IMG/VR virus record: IMGVR_UViG_2681813269_000007
From: a virus
Taxonomy: Duplodnaviria; Heunggongvirae; Uroviricota; Caudoviricetes
Reading direction: 5' to 3' (one strand)
DNA length: 22,505 bases
The position numbers and the translations under genes were made by a program. Position 1 is the stretch's first letter. Each line of letters starts with the position of its first letter. The notes below the pieces were generated by a model that made no database searches, was not told the DNA's origin, and worked only from the letters and a program-made list of their open reading frames with translations. Of the stretch, positions 1,934 to 21,871 are shown piece by piece.

Positions 1934-2899
1934 TTAATTATCAGTAGATTGTTCCTCTAGTAACAACTCAATTCTGCTTAGTATTTCTTTAGATATTTTG
2001 CGGCTATCAATTTTTATAGTTACAAAATTACCTTTATATCTAGCCGTGATCCCTTCCCCATATTTTTTCTCGTCTTTTGTTTTTTCCTCGTCGCCAACCA
2101 GAACAGAGTCAGATAATATTTGTATAATCCGTGAAGCTTCTAAATCCTCGCCGTTTTTTTTAATTGCCAGAAGATGATGAGCAGCATTGCTCATGGCAGC
2201 CATGTTTTTTTTGTAAACCTTAAACAAAGAATCTCCAGCACGAGCTGACAGTTCTCCTGGATGATTGAAGATAGCTAATATATCTTTTGGTAGACCAGCT
2301 GTATTAATACAGCGAGTGATAATATTTCTATCTATATTTTCAGCCTCGGCTAATGCTTTAACGTTACCATCAAAGTCATTTAGCTTGCGTAAGTATCTCT
2401 TTCCTCTTTCGTATGCACTAATAGGCCTATAATCGTTACCAATTTGGGATAACCAATGCATCTGTTCATCGTCGAGATCACCAATTAAGACGCGATAGTC
2501 ACATCCTGTTAATATCGCTGCTTTTCTTCTACGTGAGCCGTCAGCGACTTCAACGATTCCAGATACTTTTCTGGCGAAAGCTGGATTTTGTTGTCCAGAC
2601 GTTAGAAAAGATGGGATTAAATCGGCTAGAGAGGATTCATTTAATAAATCTTGATCGCGTTCATTACCTAGCCATACCATTGTTGCCATTTCAACTTTAT
2701 CTGCGGGAATTGTCTCTAACTTAAAGTTAACATTACGTCCGCATACTGGCAAAGTTATGCTGTTACCGGTTAATGAACTCAGTTGACGTTTTAAATCACC
2801 AACCATAGGTGATACGGGCTGATGTTCAGGGGCATGATGATTATTACTCATAATGCGATTAATATCTGGAGCATTTTTTAGAAGAGAGCGCTGTTTCAT
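1934..2899 (-). CDS. sopB: Partition protein SopB (ParB family, centromere-binding)
   Basis: 321-aa ORF colinear with F-plasmid SopB as I recall it (ITLPVCGR, WxGNERDQ, DLIPSF, PAFxRxVSG, IADGSRRRKAA, DYRVLxGxLDDEQM, GNDYRPxSAYERG, CINTAxLPK, HPGELSAR). Start overlaps the sopA stop. Confidence 0.9.
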   Translation of the reverse strand: MKQRSLLKNAPDINRIMSNNHHAPEHQPVSPMVGDLKRQLSSLTGNSITLPVCGRNVNFKLETIPADKVEMATMVWLGNERDQDLLNESSLADLIPSFLTSGQQNPAFARKVSGIVEVADGSRRRKAAILTGCDYRVLIGDLDDEQMHWLSQIGNDYRPISAYERGKRYLRKLNDFDGNVKALAEAENIDRNIITRCINTAGLPKDILAIFNHPGELSARAGDSLFKVYKKNMAAMSNAAHHLLAIKKNGEDLEASRIIQILSDSVLVGDEEKTKDEKKYGEGITARYKGNFVTIKIDSRKISKEILSRIELLLEEQSTDN

Positions 2900-4065
2900 T
2901 ATTCGTTCTCCCAGCGAGGTTTTATTAGATCATCAAAAATTTCTCGGCAAACAGGGTCCCATATAGAAACAGCATTTCTCCATGCATTCAATGTTGAACG
3001 TTGGTTTGCTGCTTGTTCAAATACTGTTCTCATTTTTATCTGGCCTTTACCTACTTCATCGGTAACGCGTACAACCTGACGTAATACCATTGATCCCCAT
3101 GTATTTCTTATTTGTTCTTCCATCCATCGTGATTGATTCCCTGTAGTGAGACTATATTTAGTCAGAAGTAAGCGAACGGTTGGCTCAAATCCACCTAGGT
3201 CAACGCTTTCCAATAGATCGAGAAGCATTGTGAAAAACTGTAGAACAGAAGCGTAATCAAATAATTCTGCAGGTGTAGCAACAACAATAACGTCAGCGGC
3301 ACAAACAACGTTAATGGTTCCTGTACCGAGGTTCGGAGCACTATCTATAACGATAACATCGTAGTTATCCCAAACTGATTCAATAGCTGCGCGCAGCATA
3401 AGGTGTGGAGGATGAGGCAATTTACCCTGAGCATGATATTGCATGAGATCTGTTTCTATACGATGTAAAGCTAGGCAGCTAGGGATAATGTCTAGCCCAG
3501 GCCAACATGTTGGCTTTATAGCATATTCAGCGTTATCGCGTTCTCCTAAGTAAAATGGCAGTAAAGTATCCTCGGCATGGATATGTAAATCAGGAACATA
3601 ACCGTGATACATAGAGGCCGTGCCTTGAGGATCGTTACCTTCAACCAAAAGAACACGATGACCTTGTAATGCTAACCATTGAGCTTGATGTACCGCAGAC
3701 GATGTTTTATAAACGCCGCCTTTGTGTGACATAACGGCAAGCGCAACAGGGTTTTTATCTTGTGGTCGTTGGTTTGGGTTGCCAAAAACTGCTCGCATAC
3801 TGTTGATTTGATCTATGGTATAACCAGCACGACGTTCAATTCTTCCTCTCATTTCAAAGTCAGGTGCAGGTAAACGCCCGCTCTTCTCAGCATCTCTAAT
3901 TGCTTGAGGAGTTACACCAATTAAATCTGCTACTTCAGTTATACCCCATCGGCGGGTGATACGCCGAGCTTCAGGACTATCATCACCGAATTGAGCGATA
4001 GCAATTGCTTTGGTCATTTCTTGACCTCTCGTAACACAATCTTGCAATAACTTTTTCAAAGACAT
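2899..4065 (-). CDS. sopA: Partition ATPase SopA (ParA family, type Ia with N-terminal HTH extension)
   Basis: 388-aa ORF with GGAGATGA RBS. Deviant Walker A KGGVYKTS, a long N-terminal extension, and the same length as F SopA. Transcribed divergently from telN. Confidence 0.9.
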   Translation of the reverse strand: MSLKKLLQDCVTRGQEMTKAIAIAQFGDDSPEARRITRRWGITEVADLIGVTPQAIRDAEKSGRLPAPDFEMRGRIERRAGYTIDQINSMRAVFGNPNQRPQDKNPVALAVMSHKGGVYKTSSAVHQAQWLALQGHRVLLVEGNDPQGTASMYHGYVPDLHIHAEDTLLPFYLGERDNAEYAIKPTCWPGLDIIPSCLALHRIETDLMQYHAQGKLPHPPHLMLRAAIESVWDNYDVIVIDSAPNLGTGTINVVCAADVIVVATPAELFDYASVLQFFTMLLDLLESVDLGGFEPTVRLLLTKYSLTTGNQSRWMEEQIRNTWGSMVLRQVVRVTDEVGKGQIKMRTVFEQAANQRSTLNAWRNAVSIWDPVCREIFDDLIKPRWENE

Positions 4066-4086: not shown

Positions 4087-4164
4087 CTTTGCTTAATAAT
4101 TAAATCTTTGCTTATTTCTAGCAAATTTGCATAAAAAAGGCAAAGCAAAACGAAAAACGCAAAG
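4087..4164. promoter_or_regulatory. sopAB promoter/operator region with clustered CTTTGC / GCAAAG hexamers
   Basis: At least six CTTTGC or GCAAAG copies (4087, 4106, 4121-4130, 4140, 4159) lie just upstream of the sopA start. CTTTGC repeats are the SopA autoregulatory sites in the F sop promoter. Confidence 0.45.
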
Positions 4165-4352
4165 GCGAATATTTGAGCTAAATCATCTTTTTTTCCCCTC
4201 CCGAAATGCATAAAACGAACAACAATATAATCATAACTAATTGATATTTATGACCTTTCTTAAGAAAGGAAATCATATAAAACTAGAGAAACATGATAAG
4301 AATCATCAATGAGATACGTTTTCTCTATTAGTTCTCCCAACCTTACCAACAT

Positions 4353-4500
4353 AAGAACACAAATAAAGAACATAAAAAACAAGTAATAACACAAACACAA
4401 TAAAGAACATAAATAAAGAATTAAAACAAATATTAAATAAAACAGTACGCAAACTGAGAACATTACATCAAATGAAAACACTAATCAAGAACATAACGAA
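4353..4500. repeat. AT-rich array of AAGAACA(T/C)AA direct repeats next to telO
   Basis: AAGAACA occurs at 4353, 4366, 4403, 4487 and as GAGAACA at 4456. The 13-mer ATAAAGAACATAA is exact at 4363-4375 and 4400-4412. All copies are on the sopA side of the palindrome. Confidence 0.5.
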
Positions 4501-4542
4501 ACATAATCACCCATTATACGCGCGTATAATGGGGAATTATGT
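4501..4542. other. telRL / telO telomere-resolution site (protelomerase target palindrome)
   Basis: ACATAATCACCCATTATACGCGCGTATAATGGGGAATTATGT has dyad symmetry centred between 4521 and 4522. The central 24 bp (4510-4533) are a perfect palindrome containing TACGCGCGTA; two mismatched pairs separate it from 7-bp matched outer arms. It lies between sopA and telN, as in N15. Confidence 0.85.
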
Positions 4543-4712
4543 GCTGATTTTCAGAACAAAGTCAAGGAACAAATTTTAACGTTCCGACATTGTGTTTTTA
4601 TTTATTATCTGTTATTGCGTTCTGTTAGTTTGTGCCTAAGTTAACGCGTTATTAGTTATCTTATTCTCAAATTGTGTTACGATAATCCGAGCGGATAATC
4701 AGGAGAGGAAAG

Positions 4713-6626
4713 ATGAGCAAAGTAAAAATCGGTGAATTAATAAACTCACTTGTTAGCGATGTTGAGTCAATAGATAACTCTGACCGTCCTCAAGGGGAGA
4801 AAACAAAAAAAATAAAGGCTGTTGCATTAAAATTTAAAAATGCATTATTTAATGACAAGCGAAAGTTTAGGGGGAAAGGATTAGAAAAAAGAATTACAGC
4901 CAACACATTCAATGCCTATATGAGCAGGGCCAGAAAACGGTTTGATGATAAACTTCATCATAGCTTTGAAAAAAATATACATCGCCTATCTGAAAAGTAT
5001 CCTTTATATAATGAGGAGCTATTGTCATGGCTTTCTCTACCTGCTGCCGATATTCGCCAGAGAATGTCAGCTTTACAGGCAAAATTAAAATTAATTCTCC
5101 CTCTATCAGAAGATTTATCTAATATCAGAATTGGCGATAACAAAAGTCATAATAAGTTATTGAAATTATCAAATAAATATAAAGAGTGGCAATTCGCCAT
5201 TTCTGATTTAACTAGCGATAACTGGAAAGATAAGCGCGATTATTTATATAAATTACTACAGCAAGGATCTGCCTTACTTGAGGAGTTGAATCAGCTAAAA
5301 GTTAACCATGAGATTCTCTATCATCTTCAACTAAGCCCTGCCGAACGTGCATCTATCCAGCAACGATGGGCGGACGTTCTGCACAATAAGAAACGTAACG
5401 TGGTGGTCATTGATTACCCTAAATATATGCAAGCTATTTACGATATTATAAATAGCCCTGCTACATTAAATAATCTAAACACTCGTTCAGGTATGGCTCC
5501 TTTGGCATTTGCACTTGCTGCATTGTCAGGAAGACGAATGATTGAGATTATGTATCAAGGTACATTTACTGTTTCTGGTAAGTATACCGTTGATTTTTTA
5601 GGCCAAGCTAAAAAAAGAACTTCTGATGATATAACCAGAAAAATATATACATTATGCGAAGCAAAAACATTTGTTTATTTAATAAATGTACTTCGCTCAT
5701 GCCCAGCAGCATCTGATTTTGATGATGTCGTTAAAGGTTATGGAGATAACGATACACGCTCTGAAAACGGACGTATTAATGCCATATTAGCAAAGGCTTT
5801 TAACCCGTGGGTTAAATCATTTTTCAAAGATGACCGCCGTGTTTATAAAGATAGTCGTGCTATTTATGCCCGTATTGCGTATGAAATGTTTTTCCGCGTA
5901 GATCCTCGTTGGAAAAACGTAGATGAAGATGTTTTCTTTATGGAAATTTTAGGCCATGACGATGAAAACACTCAATTACACTATAAGCAATTCAAGCTGG
6001 CCAACTTCTCAAAGACATGGAGGCCAAATACTGGAAACGAAAATACCAGGCTGGAAGCATTGCAGCAGCTTGATGACGAAATGCCTGGATTCGCCAGAGG
6101 AGATGCCGGGGTTCGTCTGCATAACACAGTTAAGCAGCTGGTAGAGCAGGACCCCTCTATAAAAATCACGAACAGCACTCTAAGAGCGTTCAAATTTAGC
6201 CCAACAATGATTAGTCGATACCTGGAATTTGCTGCTGATGCTCTGGGGCAATTTGTTGGCGAAAACGGACAATGGCAACTGAAAATAGATACTCCAGAAA
6301 TCGTTATGCCTGACGAAGAAGAACTGGAAGCAATACCTGAACTGGCGGATGAATTATCAGAGGATGACGATCTGGATGACGACGAAATTGAGATAGAGGA
6401 AGAGGAAGAGGAAGAGGAAGAGGAAGAGGAAGAGAGCGTAGAAGAACAGCAACCGCCTGCACCTTCTTCGCCTGTATCTAAGCCGGTATTTAAGCCGGTG
6501 AGAAATATTGGTGATGGCTCATACGTTGTTGAGTTTCATTATAATGGCCAGAATTATGCGTGGTCCGGCAGTGCAAACAGCCCCATGTCAGCAATGCAGT
6601 TAGCATGGCTGACATATTTCGGTTAA
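4713..6626 (+). CDS. telN: Protelomerase TelN (telomere resolvase, tyrosine-recombinase-like)
   Basis: 637-aa ORF with AGGAGAGG RBS. The N-terminus MSKVKIGELIN... and overall colinearity match N15 TelN (about 630 aa) as I recall it. An acidic C-terminal tract precedes the conserved tail. Confidence 0.92.
   Translation: MSKVKIGELINSLVSDVESIDNSDRPQGEKTKKIKAVALKFKNALFNDKRKFRGKGLEKRITANTFNAYMSRARKRFDDKLHHSFEKNIHRLSEKYPLYNEELLSWLSLPAADIRQRMSALQAKLKLILPLSEDLSNIRIGDNKSHNKLLKLSNKYKEWQFAISDLTSDNWKDKRDYLYKLLQQGSALLEELNQLKVNHEILYHLQLSPAERASIQQRWADVLHNKKRNVVVIDYPKYMQAIYDIINSPATLNNLNTRSGMAPLAFALAALSGRRMIEIMYQGTFTVSGKYTVDFLGQAKKRTSDDITRKIYTLCEAKTFVYLINVLRSCPAASDFDDVVKGYGDNDTRSENGRINAILAKAFNPWVKSFFKDDRRVYKDSRAIYARIAYEMFFRVDPRWKNVDEDVFFMEILGHDDENTQLHYKQFKLANFSKTWRPNTGNENTRLEALQQLDDEMPGFARGDAGVRLHNTVKQLVEQDPSIKITNSTLRAFKFSPTMISRYLEFAADALGQFVGENGQWQLKIDTPEIVMPDEEELEAIPELADELSEDDDLDDDEIEIEEEEEEEEEEEEESVEEQQPPAPSSPVSKPVFKPVRNIGDGSYVVEFHYNGQNYAWSGSANSPMSAMQLAWLTYFG
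6396..6431 (+). repeat. Perfect (GAGGAA)x6 in-frame hexanucleotide tandem repeat inside telN
   Basis: Six exact tandem GAGGAA units encode the poly-Glu run in the TelN C-terminal acidic linker. Confidence 0.9.
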
Positions 6627-10166: not shown

Positions 10167-13100
10167 TTACCCATAGAAAGCGCCCTGCTCTTCGTAGCTG
10201 CATGGGCTATTCCCGGTAATGTATTCACGTAACCGCCGCAGTTCATTGCTGGATAAGTGATCCATGAACTCTGTGAGGTACAGAGATGCAAACGTCATAG
10301 CTATGCTGGCTGATGACCATGATGACATAGTGGCCAGCTCCTCACCGGAAAGCGCACTCATCGCCCAGGACTCAGGTACAACCACTGGCAACACAGCCAA
10401 AGCCTCAGAAATTACTGAATGAGGGGCGTTTTGAACCTGCTCGTTTGTGGATCGCGTTTTATCATCCATATATATATTGAGATCCAAATCGCGATCCATT
10501 TCGATGGCGGTCTTCTCGGCTTTACGCGTTTTCAGGGTTAGGCCATCTTTCTGACGCTGAGCAAGAATATCCAGCATAAATGCCGCTGATTCAGGCTCAA
10601 CAAAACGCAAGGTTGGACGCTTATCGCCGTCTCTGCCGCGACGTTTACCTGTTTTAAGGCCAAGAGAGTCGCAAATGTTTTTAAACAACGCTTCCGGCAC
10701 TTTAGGCTTCCCTTTTGGCGTCATAAAACCACCAATGTGCAGAACGTTATTCAACAGGTCACGGCGTTCGGCTGTCATGAGGTTATCTCGAGCAAATTTG
10801 AGACGCTCCTGAGTCGCCTCGCCGGTCATAGTCTCAGGGTTGATACCGCAGTCGATAAAGTACTGCCGGAGAGTTGCTGATTTAAGCGCATAGAAACCGC
10901 GCGCCCCGACTTCAACAGTAGGAGTAGCTTTTACCTTGTGATCGATTATTCCAGGGAATTTAGTTTTAAAGACATCATCAGCCTGCTCGCGAGTCATCGC
11001 GGTCACTACAAAATATTGCCACTGTCCCGCCTGACGGTATGCGTAGGTAAAATTGATGGCTGCTTCTTCCCGGTCGTAACGACGAGCTGTTACCTCATCT
11101 AAAAGCATTGTTTCATAGCGGCGAACTTTGTCTCGAGCACCATCGAAATAGAATTTCAGCGTGCCTTCTTCAACCGGTAGTTTCAGTTCGTTTTCAATAT
11201 CCCAGCGGACAAGTTTTGCCTGTTCTTCAAGCGTCAGCGCGCGTTTTTTTAGCAGTTCTTCACGCTCTGATTCTTGTGGAGTTTCTGTATTGAGATGCAG
11301 ATCCAGTGTCTGTTCCCACACAATATCCCGCGCTTCTTTACGCAGCTCTTTACCGATATCATTCGCAGCATAATCGGTGGCCAGCGGCGATACCTTATAA
11401 CCGTCGCTGTGCATGATGCAGATCATGTTGCTGGCGTAGTCGTTACGCGCAGTCGCTTCAATAGCGGCTGCTTTAATTTTCATCCTGGTAAAGTCGGTAT
11501 TGGCCACCCCCATTGATATACGGTCGCCATCGAAAACGACATCCGTCAGTTCACCGTTCATACCTGCGGTAGCAAGCAATGCCTGGGCGAATGCTCGTTC
11601 TATTTTTTGCGGGTCAGTTTCACGTTTTGCACGAGCTTTATCAAAGCCGATAATAAATTCTTTTGCTGTACGGTCGCGGCGTAGCATTTGCACTGCGTCG
11701 CTGGGTACAACTTCACCACAGAACATGCCGAAATGACGGTCAAAATGTTTTTGCTCAATCGACACGCCGGATGAAATAGACGGGCTATAAATCAGGCCGT
11801 CGTATTTTTTGACCATCTTTTTCGGTTGATTGGTAAATGCTTCAACTTCTGGCTCTGGTTTGTTTTTCTGGTTTACACACAGAAATTTCTTACCAGGAAA
11901 ATGCATTCTCAGGGTGGCTGTCACATCTTCTGCAAAGGTGGAGCTGTCGGTGGCCAACATGATTTTTTCGCCATCCGATACAGCTTTCACCACCTCGGTC
12001 ATGATGCGATCTTTTTCTGTATAAAAAACCCGGATTGGCTCACCTGTTTCGCGGTTGCGAACATCAACAGGTAATTCAATTACGTGGATCTGCAGCCATG
12101 CCGGTAAACCTAGTTCTTCACGGCGTTTCATAGCCAGTTCAGCCAGGTCAACCAGCAGATCGTTCGCATCAGCATCCACCATGATTGGGTGTTGTTCCGT
12201 TCTGGCCAGCGCGTCAATTAGCGTATTGAATACAGCCACCGGGTTTTCCATAGCCCGACCGGAAAGAACGGCACGTAGCCCTTGTGTGGCCTCGTCAAAG
12301 CCAAAATAGTCGTGCTGGCGCATCAACGGTTGCCAGCAGTTTTTAACAATCGAGTTTATGCAGATGGTCAGTTTACTGGCGTATGGAGCCATTTCCTGAT
12401 AGCCAGGGTCCTGATAGTGCAGGATATCGGCTTTTACACCTTTTCCTTCTGTCATCATTTCCCACAGGCCACCAATAAGGGAGACACGGTGAGCAACAGA
12501 GATACCACGTTCTGAGCTATGCATTAATGGTCGTAACAATCCTGTAGATTTGCCGGAACCCATACCAGCACGGACGATGACTATCCCTTGTAGTGATTGC
12601 ACGTACTTCAGGACATCATCGGTCATTACCGAAGTTTCAAAACGCTTATAGGTGATATGTTGAGGGCGTTTATTGGGATCAGTTATGCGTTCGCTGAAAG
12701 AGCGCGGAGCCTGGGCAATACGGCACTTTTTATTCAGGCGACGGGCAATGTGGTCTTTTACCGTAGCGCGATAGATATTTTCCAGTCCCATTTCACGCAG
12801 AACGATGCAGAACATGTTAAATAAATCTGACGGACTGTTAGGAACCGGACAGGTTAGCATGCCTATATCCACCGCTCTCAGCAGCTCTTTGGCAAAAGTA
12901 CGACGGTTATCCCGCTTAATTGTCTTCAGGCGGTTGAGCGTCAGAGATAGCAAATCAGTACCGGTTTTCAGGCGGTTTGCTGTTGTAAATAGTTGACGTG
13001 CGGTTTCACGAAGTCCACGTAGTTTGTGCAGGTCGTTGAAGTCACTGCACTCCATTTGCGGATCGTCTTCAAAAGTTGGATAGACGCAGCGGACATCGTT

Positions 13101-14162
13101 GAATTTCGATAAGATTTCATAGCCAGTCCGCAGGCCGGTATTCCCTTTTCCTTCTGTGGCAGATTTCCGGTCATTATCCAGTGCGCAGGTGATTTTTGCC
13201 GCCGGGTACATGTTTACCAGTTGTTCCACAACATGAACCATGTTGTTAGCGGATACAGCGACAACCACAGCGTCAAAGCGTTTATATTTTTTCGTGGCAA
13301 GCCAGATGGATGCACCAGTAGCAAAACCTTCTGTAACAGCGATGTTTTGCGCCCCTTTCAGCTCACCGATAACAAAGCAGGCACCGACGAAATCGCCGCT
13401 GGTTACTGCGCTGGTCTGGTATTTCCCACCTTGTTTGTCGATTCGCTGCCAACCCACAATACGACCATCGTAACGACCGTCCAGGTGAGCCAGAGGGATA
13501 GCCATATATGTGGTTGGCCCCCGGCTCCATTTCGCACTGTCGTGACTGGTCACGCGACGCACATCACATGAACTAAAAACGTCACGAATACCTTTTTTAA
13601 TCGCATATGGCCATGAGCCGTCTTCAGCCGGAGCATGTTCCCACGCGCTGTGGAATGCCAGCCATCCCAGCAAACGTTCATGGTCCATTTGGTTGTTTTT
13701 CAGGTCATTAATTCGTTTTTGTTCTTCACGGCGACGACGTGCTTCGGCCTGACGTTCTATTCTTTCCCGTTCTTCTTCCGGTTGTGCGACCACGGTCGCA
13801 TTATTCCGTTGTTGCTCACGGCGATATTCAGAAAACAGGAAGGAGAAACCGCTCCATGAGCCAGCATCGCTGCCTTTATGGACGAAGTTAATGAACGGGT
13901 AATCAATCCCTTTGCTGTGTTCCAGCCGGGAGTAAATTTCTACGCGTCCTTTCAGGCTCTTTTCGAGAGCTTCTGGAGATGTTTTATTGTATGAAGAGTA
14001 ACGCTCAACTCCCCCGCGAGGGTTGAGTTGGATGTTGTCGGAACAGGCAGGCCAGTTGATACCAGCCATCTGTGCCAGCTCGGTTAGTTCATCCCGTGCT
14101 GCTTCAATTAGCGAGAACGGATCGCTGCCAAAGCGATCCGCATAGAAATCGTTTAATGTCAT
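10167..14162 (-). CDS. repA: Replication protein RepA (multidomain primase-helicase)
   Basis: 1331-aa ORF, close to the roughly 1324 aa I recall for N15 RepA. Walker A GMGSGKST in the central helicase region. Same orientation and position relative to cB as in N15. Confidence 0.92.
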   Translation of the reverse strand: MTLNDFYADRFGSDPFSLIEAARDELTELAQMAGINWPACSDNIQLNPRGGVERYSSYNKTSPEALEKSLKGRVEIYSRLEHSKGIDYPFINFVHKGSDAGSWSGFSFLFSEYRREQQRNNATVVAQPEEERERIERQAEARRRREEQKRINDLKNNQMDHERLLGWLAFHSAWEHAPAEDGSWPYAIKKGIRDVFSSCDVRRVTSHDSAKWSRGPTTYMAIPLAHLDGRYDGRIVGWQRIDKQGGKYQTSAVTSGDFVGACFVIGELKGAQNIAVTEGFATGASIWLATKKYKRFDAVVVAVSANNMVHVVEQLVNMYPAAKITCALDNDRKSATEGKGNTGLRTGYEILSKFNDVRCVYPTFEDDPQMECSDFNDLHKLRGLRETARQLFTTANRLKTGTDLLSLTLNRLKTIKRDNRRTFAKELLRAVDIGMLTCPVPNSPSDLFNMFCIVLREMGLENIYRATVKDHIARRLNKKCRIAQAPRSFSERITDPNKRPQHITYKRFETSVMTDDVLKYVQSLQGIVIVRAGMGSGKSTGLLRPLMHSSERGISVAHRVSLIGGLWEMMTEGKGVKADILHYQDPGYQEMAPYASKLTICINSIVKNCWQPLMRQHDYFGFDEATQGLRAVLSGRAMENPVAVFNTLIDALARTEQHPIMVDADANDLLVDLAELAMKRREELGLPAWLQIHVIELPVDVRNRETGEPIRVFYTEKDRIMTEVVKAVSDGEKIMLATDSSTFAEDVTATLRMHFPGKKFLCVNQKNKPEPEVEAFTNQPKKMVKKYDGLIYSPSISSGVSIEQKHFDRHFGMFCGEVVPSDAVQMLRRDRTAKEFIIGFDKARAKRETDPQKIERAFAQALLATAGMNGELTDVVFDGDRISMGVANTDFTRMKIKAAAIEATARNDYASNMICIMHSDGYKVSPLATDYAANDIGKELRKEARDIVWEQTLDLHLNTETPQESEREELLKKRALTLEEQAKLVRWDIENELKLPVEEGTLKFYFDGARDKVRRYETMLLDEVTARRYDREEAAINFTYAYRQAGQWQYFVVTAMTREQADDVFKTKFPGIIDHKVKATPTVEVGARGFYALKSATLRQYFIDCGINPETMTGEATQERLKFARDNLMTAERRDLLNNVLHIGGFMTPKGKPKVPEALFKNICDSLGLKTGKRRGRDGDKRPTLRFVEPESAAFMLDILAQRQKDGLTLKTRKAEKTAIEMDRDLDLNIYMDDKTRSTNEQVQNAPHSVISEALAVLPVVVPESWAMSALSGEELATMSSWSSASIAMTFASLYLTEFMDHLSSNELRRLREYITGNSPCSYEEQGAFYG
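13783..13802. other. sopC-like centromere palindrome, copy 1 (inside repA coding sequence)
   Basis: TGTGCGACC-AC-GGTCGCATT. Positions 13785-13800 (TGCGACC-AC-GGTCGCA) are a perfect 7+2+7 inverted repeat with the same GACC-AC-GGTC core as the F sopC SopB-binding site. Confidence 0.6.
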
Positions 14163-20794: not shown

Positions 20795-21871
20795 ATGTTC
20801 AAAACCACTAATATTCATGGCGCACAACTCGTTTGCGCAGATTCTCTGCAATTTATCAAAACCATCCCTGATAACTCGGTCAATTTGATTGCAACAGACC
20901 CACCATACTTCGGCGTAAAGGCTAACGCATGGGATAACCAGTGGGATAGCGATGCTGACTTTTTGGGGTGGATTGACGAATTTTTGGCAGAATTTTGGCG
21001 GATATTGGCCCCTAATGGCAGCCTGTATATGTTTACCGGCTCTCGCCTTGCGTCAAAAATTGAATTATTAACTCGCGACCGTTTCAATGTTCTGAACCAT
21101 ATCATTTGGGCTAAACCCAGTGGTATGTGGCGCGGTTGTCATAAAGAAAGTTTAAGGGCTTATTTTCCTGCTACTGAAAGAATATTATTTGCAGAGCATT
21201 ACGGCGCGTCAGGTTATGCTAAAGGTCAGTCAGGTTATGCTTCAAAATGTGCAGATTTAAGAAAAAATATTTTTTCTCCACTAATTGATGCTTTTTCGCT
21301 GGCTCGCCGTCAGTTAGATATATCAGCCGCAGACATTAATTCAGCGACAGGAAAGCAGATGTGTTCACACTGGTTTTCTTATTCGCAGTGGCGGCTTCCA
21401 TCATTAATTGATTTTAATAAACTATGCGAATTATTTCGCAGGAAGGCAGATTCACTCGGTGTCCCGTGTCCATATCCTTTTAATGTTGATTATTCAGAAC
21501 ATGAAAAGCGTTATAGCGATCTGAAATTGCATTATGAGGAAGTAAAGAAGCAGTATGATGATTTGAAGGCTCAGTATGAAAATTTACGCCGTCCATTTCA
21601 TGTTACTGCTGATGTACCTTATACCGATGTATGGGAGTTTCCTCCTGTGCAATATTATCCTGGCAAGCACCCATGTGAAAAACCTGCAGCGATGATGGAA
21701 CATATTATAAAGAGTAGTTCACGCCCCGGAGATATCGTTGCCGATTTCTTTATGGGATCAGGCTCAACTATTAAAGCTGCGCTGAAGTTAGGACGTCAGG
21801 CAATAGGTATTGAGATTGAGGGCGAACGTTATCTTCAGACAGTTGATGAAGTGAAAAAGTTATTTGAGTAA
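20795..21871 (+). CDS. DNA methyltransferase (amino-MTase, DPPY motif before FxGxG motif)
   Basis: ORF open from 20750; ATG 20795 is preferred because the 20750 ATG sits inside a palindrome. IATDPPY near the N-terminus and FFMGSGST near the C-terminus. No adjacent endonuclease is visible. Confidence 0.8.
   Translation: MFKTTNIHGAQLVCADSLQFIKTIPDNSVNLIATDPPYFGVKANAWDNQWDSDADFLGWIDEFLAEFWRILAPNGSLYMFTGSRLASKIELLTRDRFNVLNHIIWAKPSGMWRGCHKESLRAYFPATERILFAEHYGASGYAKGQSGYASKCADLRKNIFSPLIDAFSLARRQLDISAADINSATGKQMCSHWFSYSQWRLPSLIDFNKLCELFRRKADSLGVPCPYPFNVDYSEHEKRYSDLKLHYEEVKKQYDDLKAQYENLRRPFHVTADVPYTDVWEFPPVQYYPGKHPCEKPAAMMEHIIKSSSRPGDIVADFFMGSGSTIKAALKLGRQAIGIEIEGERYLQTVDEVKKLFE

Follow-up and report, generated by a model that had tools for sequence, protein, structure and literature searches.

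The 42-bp palindrome at 4501-4542 of the DNA analysed here (the window, i.e., the whole 22,505-bp stretch) is very probably an ordinary telRL, i.e., the hairpin-telomere resolution site of a linear phage-plasmid of E. coli that resembles N15; by analogy to the phages N15 and phiKO2, the element's own protelomerase TelN would resolve it. The initial annotation had already proposed a protelomerase target at this place, and this assignment is borne out by a telO core equal to that of N15 and phiKO2, by the adjacent gene with TelK domains and by the flanking SopA and SopB genes. The kind of element is known, and its lineage has already been deposited and annotated.

Structure of the palindrome

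The features of the site and of its neighborhood are compiled in Table 1. In a repeat search, the two arms of the dyad (21 nt each) directly abut with a spacer of 0 and a complementarity of 90%, and the dyad axis runs between positions 4521 and 4522. The 22-bp telO (4511-4532; 22-mer CCATTATACGCGCGTATAATGG) lies within the perfect core. The 22.5-kb window contains no other 42-bp palindrome with up to four mismatches, and the runner-up among the perfect palindromes comprises 18 bp. A first-order Markov model of the window, simulated 300 times, never generated a 42-bp palindrome with at most two mismatches; in these simulations, perfect palindromes reached a mean maximum length of 11.9 bp, the overall maximum being 22 bp. 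Thus, the palindrome is far above chance, and the dyad with its perfect 24-bp core is as real as had been claimed. As single-stranded DNA, the telRL region folds with -12.4 kcal/mol, corresponding to z = -4.6 compared to shuffled sequences. The window features further, smaller palindromes. A perfect 16-bp palindrome upstream of sopA (CCTTTCTTAAGAAAGG, 4254-4269) could be an operator, and an 18-bp A/T palindrome is located at 21260-21277. Another perfect 16-bp palindrome (GCTGTATTAATACAGC, 2298-2313) lies within sopB; it was considered as a repeated centromere motif, which was ruled out by its single copy in the window.

Table 1. Coordinates of the telRL site, its repeats and the neighboring genes in the window (half-site positions are counted outward from the dyad axis).
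Feature	Position	Strand	Description
telRL dyad	4501..4542		42 bp, 21-nt arms, 2 mismatches; ACATAATCACCCATTATACGC / GCGTATAATGGGGAATTATGT
Perfect palindromic core	4510..4533		24 bp; CCCATTATACGCGCGTATAATGGG
Central CGCGCG	4519..4524		Hexamer spanning the dyad axis; TATA on its flanks; no spacer
Mismatched dinucleotide	4508..4509 (CA) vs 4534-4535 (GA)		Adjacent mismatches, positions 13-14 from the dyad
Left outer repeat (L3-like)	4495..4507		AACGAAACATAAT; degenerate, 9/13 positions match the mirror of the right repeat
Right outer repeat (R3-like)	4536..4548		ATTATGTGCTGAT; 1 base off N15 and phiKO2; intact
tos-like zone	4354..4623		9 AGAACAYAA matches: 6 on + left of the dyad, 3 on - right of it
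telN	4713..6626	+	637-aa protelomerase; Pfam TelK_N, muzzle, catalytic and stirrup domains
sopA	2899..4065	-	ParA-type partition ATPase; reads away from telRL; 'sopA' in relatives, 98% identity
sopB	1934..2899	-	ParB-type centromere-binding protein, SopB-HTH; in relatives ParB-family partition protein
repA	10167..14162	-	1331-aa replication protein; in relatives 'plasmid replication protein, CyRepA1 family'

Genetic context

The placement of the dyad 'exactly between sopA and telN', as initially described, holds insofar as the dyad lies within the 647-bp intergenic region of these genes, but it is found off the midpoint, at a distance of 456 bp to the start of sopA and 191 bp to the ATG of telN. 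The TelN protein aligns over residues 1-536 with the TelK crystal chain (PDB 2V6E; E = 2.5e-295), and its Tyr424 (QLHYKQF) aligns with the nucleophile tyrosine of TelK and is conserved. Rightward of telN, a Bro-N antirepressor-like gene, RepA and a cB/cro/Q-type immunity region follow. The resulting arrangement of tail genes, sopBA, telRL, telN, antirepressor region, large RepA and cB/cro/Q is the gene order of the Ravinvirus type, and records with such an annotation are 95-98% identical to the window. Besides, a Macro-domain protein of 296 aa is encoded at 427-1317 on the plus strand, upstream of a tail-fibre assembly gene (1320-1901) and adjoining sopB; this gene looks like variable accessory cargo, since three closely related contigs (L016-L018) have other genes at this place.

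A palindrome within a divergent promoter region might also serve mainly transcription, either as a bidirectional terminator or as an operator for SopA, SopB or another repressor, instead of being a recombination site. A simple scan assigned a terminator-like score to 4533-4510 on the minus strand, and a sigma-70-like match (4565-4536) overlaps the right arm. Nevertheless, sopA and telN both read away from the palindrome, so that a terminator would have nothing to terminate there, and the promoter-like matches are below the shuffle expectation (2 vs 3.3). Moreover, the cut sites defined by experiment for N15 and phiKO2 contain the same telO, and the replicon ends of relatives map to this place. 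On these grounds the terminator or operator reading was rejected as extremely unlikely, although a secondary regulatory role via occupancy by TelN may exist beside telomere resolution.

Comparison with N15, phiKO2, and PY54

An alignment to the telRL sites of N15, phiKO2 and PY54 had been suggested as a check, and it assigns the site clearly. The 22-mer of the window is identical (22/22) in N15 and phiKO2, i.e., in experimentally defined cut sites, and forms the center of the annotated 56-bp repeat of N15 (NC_001901, 24775-24830; TATCAGCACACAATTGCCCATTATACGC / GCGTATAATGGACTATTGTGTGCTGATA), the prophage cut site with the cut at 24802/3. The N15 telO core that had been noted for the window is therefore present. 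The corresponding sites are …AACGAAACATAATCACCCATTATACGC / GCGTATAATGGGGAATTATGTGCTGATTTT in the window and …AACAGCACACAACAGCCCATTATACGC / GCGTATAATGGGCTATTATGTGCTGATTAT in the annotated telRL of phiKO2 (NC_005857, 29121-29170).

The likeness to N15 includes the central CGCGCG, the placement between sopA and telN, the divergent sopA, the degenerate repeats pointing toward the dyad and the distance between dyad and telN ATG, which amounts to 192 bp in N15 vs 191 bp in the window. N15 TelN shares 77% identity with the window's TelN over the full length, with Tyr424 being conserved. Likewise, N15 has a dinucleotide region that lacks symmetry within positions 12-14 of the half-site, its functional site being asymmetric at positions 12 and 14. 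In contrast, the outer arms differ, as had been noted: N15 carries ACACAAT/ATTGTGT where the window carries ACATAAT/ATTATGT, which is a symmetric change at position 18. The core-adjacent triplets are TTG/TAG in N15, including the asymmetric position 12, vs TCA/TTC in the window, and the left repeat of N15 (CAGCAC) extends the symmetry to 28 nt per arm, whereas the symmetry of the window (CGAAAC) comprises 21 nt.

The Klebsiella phage phiKO2 shares the identical core CCCATTATACGCGCGTATAATGGG with the window, and from position 15 outward the two also have the same right arm (ATTATGTGCTGAT in phiKO2); the TelK of phiKO2 is 75% identical to the window's TelN over the full length. Its left arm reads ACACAAC, and it is asymmetric at positions 15, 18, and 26, whereas the window is asymmetric at 13-14 and 22-24. 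In the Yersinia phage PY54, too, a similarly sized palindrome directly precedes tel, and the partition gene spyA lies beyond icd. However, this palindrome (…CAGCATACTACGC / GCGTAGTATGCTG…) shares only the central 10 bp (TACGCGCGTA) with the window, the arms are unrelated past position 5, and the Tel proteins are about 40-43% identical. A PY54-type telRL was ruled out by this overlap of only 10 bp together with the low Tel identity; judged by the alignment, the site is of the N15/phiKO2 type and not of the PY54 type.

Proposed mechanism of resolution

Protelomerases act as dimers, form 3'-phosphotyrosine links and reseal each strand onto its complement. By analogy to N15 TelN and phiKO2 TelK, two TelN monomers would bind the half-sites head to head and cut both strands 6 bp apart flanking the central CGCGCG, i.e., at 4518/4519 and 4524/4525, via a 3'-phosphotyrosine link at Tyr424. 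The self-complementary 5' overhangs of 6 nt would then fold back and be resealed to hairpins, and a linear molecule would arise from the circular or replicated form. The telR hairpin is expected to keep the side of sopBA and the virion genes (4521 leftward), and the telL hairpin the side of telN, repA and the immunity region (4522 rightward). These predictions follow the phiKO2 system, in which the TelK target is cleaved with a 6-bp stagger and CGCGCG lies between the scissile positions (PMC3558466), and the crystallised TelK538 formed a head-to-head dimer on a 44-mer (PMC3575837).

Half-site anatomy from natural variation

The variation of the site was analyzed in about 90 arms, comprising all IMG/VR loci with the telO 22-mer (n = 37) and other fetched loci, with each arm read outward from the dyad. 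The right arm of one locus (L010, NZ_OY757103.1) was left out of these statistics; this arm (GCGTATATTAGGGAATTTGTG) differs from all relatives by substitutions and a deletion, which probably represents a sequencing error at the palindrome. Positions 1-11 have an entropy of 0, being fixed by the search pattern, and position 12 is nearly invariant (entropy about 0). At position 13, all four bases were found (0.9-1.6 bits), and position 14 is variable, too (0.3-1.0 bits). Further outward, positions 15-21 have an entropy of 0 in the E. coli lineage and a low one in the wider family, in which conservation covers positions 15-27; past position 27, the sequence is random. This pattern suggests that reading of each half-site involves positions 1-12 and approximately 15-27 but not 13-14. 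Both mismatches of the window fall exactly on these two unconstrained positions (about 90 half-sites) and should therefore be harmless. At position 18 (N15 vs the E. coli lineage) and at position 16 (L059 and L046), the two arms show symmetric, compensated changes, which fits two identical protein subunits on two half-sites. One of the latter loci, a 46,169-bp contig of Pseudocitrobacter vendiensis (L059, NZ_CALSBS010000033.1), shows an A-to-G change at position 16 in both arms (CACAGTAGCCC / GGGCTACTGTG); this species is also the only one among the GTDB species-representative genomes in which the exact telO was found. In a more distant relative (L056, IMGVR_UViG_3300036778_000064; TelN 58% identical), the core CCCATTATACGCGCGTATAATGGG is kept while the outer repeat differs (TATCGTCACCACATTT); accordingly, the core persists longer than the outer arms during evolution. 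In the prophage, telR and telL form two hairpins that are physically apart, so that the arms would evolve independently, each needing only to stay a half-site for TelN.

A mutational hot spot at positions 13-14 was considered and found to be unsupported. Across four contigs that share an identical TelN, 5/54 columns of the telRL block are variable vs 52/647 for the intergenic region, i.e., the density is similar; therefore, positions 13-14 are unconstrained and not hypermutable. The same four contigs (the window, L016, L017, and L018; TelN 100% identical) have 52 of their 68 variable columns in the intergenic DNA between sopA and telN, mostly on the telR side (4100-4500), and the genes around this region are nearly invariant among them. 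Thus, variation at this locus is highest in the telomere-proximal non-coding DNA. The exact left arm of the window (TCACCC variant) was absent from the 37 IMG/VR telO loci and had 0 matches among JGI metagenome contigs; it may be due to an erroneous consensus of the draft assembly at 4508-4509.

Outer repeats and flanking motifs

Compared to the L3/R3 consensus CAGCACAYAAT, the right side of the site is intact, and the left, sopA-side (telR) repeat, with 9/13 positions, carries the CGAAAC allele: it reads CGAAAC..A where CAGCAC..T is usual, with differences at positions 22-24 and 26. The dyad symmetry consequently ends at 21 nt per arm. Among the relatives, CGAAAC..A was present in 15 of 21 telR arms and CAGCAC..T in the other 6, and the telL arm featured CAGCAC throughout. 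No co-variation of the telR allele with TelN was found, as both alleles occur with TelN proteins that are 98.4-100% identical. The CGAAAC allele was further detected in perfectly mirrored telRR junctions (L014, L034, and L057); therefore, it forms real hairpin ends, and the outer-repeat feature of the site appears relaxed instead of failed. The simplest reading of these data is a tolerance at positions 22-24 and 26.

A different interpretation regards the site as a decayed telRL, in which the core-proximal mismatches and the degenerate left repeat abolish resolution and leave a circular plasmid or a defective prophage. It could draw on the low flanking symmetry (only 25/60 symmetric positions), on the 9/13 match of the left outer repeat to the right one and on the TCACCC variant, which is unique to the window's contig among the sequences collected. 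Nevertheless, the mismatches occupy positions that vary freely in the family, and the functional N15 site is itself asymmetric at positions 12 and 14. In addition, the mirrored junctions with CGAAAC include elements with TelN 98-100% identical, and telN, sopAB, repA and the immunity genes are intact ORFs. Decay is thus very unlikely, and an ordinary telRL remains the preferred reading. Still, TelN could process the left half-site less well, since the full 56-bp site with L3/R3 is treated as needed and the left repeat matches at only 9/13 positions. The requirement of the full 56-bp N15 site for efficient processing is stated in the part of PMC12624138 that cites the N15 literature.

It is unlikely that the combination of a CGAAAC repeat restricted to telR and free positions 13-14 reflects a functional asymmetry beyond mere tolerance. 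If this were true, the asymmetry might result in different TelN affinities for the two telomeres, and the difference could set the order of resolution, differentiate the protection of the ends from SbcCD or couple TelN occupancy to the expression of sopAB.

Beyond the outer repeats, all nine matches of the tos-like zone point toward the dyad. Allowing one mismatch, AGAACAYAA was found 25 times in the window vs 12.6 ± 3.5 expected. This zone resembles the degenerate L1, L2, R1, and R2 copies around the telRL of N15, where the natural TelN target covers about 310 bp with these degenerate copies of the L3/R3 motifs surrounding the 56-bp site (PMC12624138).

Relatives and replicon ends

In megablast searches, records of E. 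coli, E. albertii, E. fergusonii, and Shigella reached 95-99% nucleotide identity to the window, and the element is present in 18 of 5,426 complete E. coli genomes. The suggestion of a distinct family member is therefore only partly upheld: the element is a relative of N15 with a TelN that is 77% identical, but it is not new, given the records at 95-99% identity and the annotated phage PhiR46_1. The E. coli-lineage phage-plasmids (PhiR46_1, YDC107_1, E. albertii pEA8_3, and RL465 plasmid III) encode TelN proteins 98-100% identical to that of the window and share its telO and right arm, and most of them also share the CGAAAC left allele, whereas CAGCAC on both arms characterizes PhiR46_1 and a minority of the lineage. 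Otherwise, only positions 13-14 of the left arm differ, where these relatives feature TC, TT, TA or TG vs CA in the window.

Several deposited records end at the dyad. Among the 18 complete E. coli genomes with the element, the junction is intact in 5, and the other 13 are interrupted at the dyad or close to it. Numerous PLSDB and RefSeq matches end exactly at 4501 or 4542, or the records start a few tens of bases from the dyad; an intact telRL junction was found in 8 PLSDB records. The genome of phage PhiR46_1 (PV340565) was deposited as linear, with a 'telL site' and a 'telR site' annotated at its ends, both containing the window's telO. In the Ravinvirus YDC107_1 (CP025712), telN occurs as an inverted duplication about the dyad. 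The linear 61.5-kb record of E. coli RL465 plasmid III (NZ_LT906558) has two perfect mirror points (60/60 positions), one telLL and one telRR, which are 45.7 kb apart, corresponding to one N15-sized genome; these mirrors are the product of sequencing around hairpin ends. Two further relatives with a TelN 100% identical to the window's show a telLL mirror (L020) and a contig end 15 nt past the dyad (L021), respectively. As far as the deposited records indicate, the dyad is thus the true replicon end in relatives with TelN 98-100% identical. Many family 'plasmids' of 61-92 kb have four matching places each (NZ_LT906558, NZ_CP014491, CP088738, NZ_CP019258, CP088810, CP088430, and others). These records look like linear prophages of about 46 kb whose arms were duplicated by sequencing around hairpins, one of them (NZ_LT906558) having been inspected.

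Configuration of telRL in the window

The window itself carries a telR-type flank on the left and a telL-type flank on the right, with 25/60 symmetric positions. A hairpin read-through as its origin was ruled out, since true read-throughs are symmetric at 60/60 positions. With its unrelated flanks, the window accordingly holds the unresolved telRL junction, i.e., the uncut telR-telL configuration. For the intact site, the initial annotation had named the circular or virion form or an assembly read through hairpin telomeres, as opposed to resolved prophage ends. This stands with regard to an unresolved site, but the read-through is excluded and a join made by an assembler was missing from the list. 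Two origins remain, namely real DNA (circular, replicative or from virions) of cells that underwent spontaneous induction and a join by an assembler or scaffolder.

The latter origin, with only a resolved linear plasmid in the strain and its telR and telL ends joined via the palindromic core, is possible but somewhat doubtful. The window equals the entire 22,505-bp contig CXNR01000057.1 of the draft isolate assembly GCA_001256515.1; as a draft contig of a bacterial isolate, it represents DNA of a lysogen rather than of a virion preparation. In most complete relatives, the match is interrupted at the dyad, and the core of at least 24 bp is common to both ends, so that a graph with small k-mers could cross it. 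On the other hand, because the arms differ at positions 13-14, k-mers of more than about 27 nt covering 4508-4509 and 4534-4535 would be present only in genuine telRL molecules, and the typical assembly k is larger, which slightly favors real molecules. Temperate phages are spontaneously released in cultures of lysogens, which yields true telRL DNA and counts against a join as well. Furthermore, the intact junction in the 8 PLSDB records and 5 of the complete E. coli genomes argues against it.

Implications

As a textbook element, i.e., the protelomerase target of an N15-like phage-plasmid, the site has little discovery value in itself. Its benefits concern annotation, as the contig can be labeled as a linear phage-plasmid with its true ends at 4521/4522, and many of the 61-92 kb 'plasmids' of this family in the databases appear to be artefacts of hairpin read-through. 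Moreover, the natural variation offers a map of the half-site, with positions 1-12 and approximately 15-27 apparently constrained, positions 13-14 free and positions 22-24 tolerating an alternative allele, which could help in designing minimal TelN substrates for producing closed-linear DNA.
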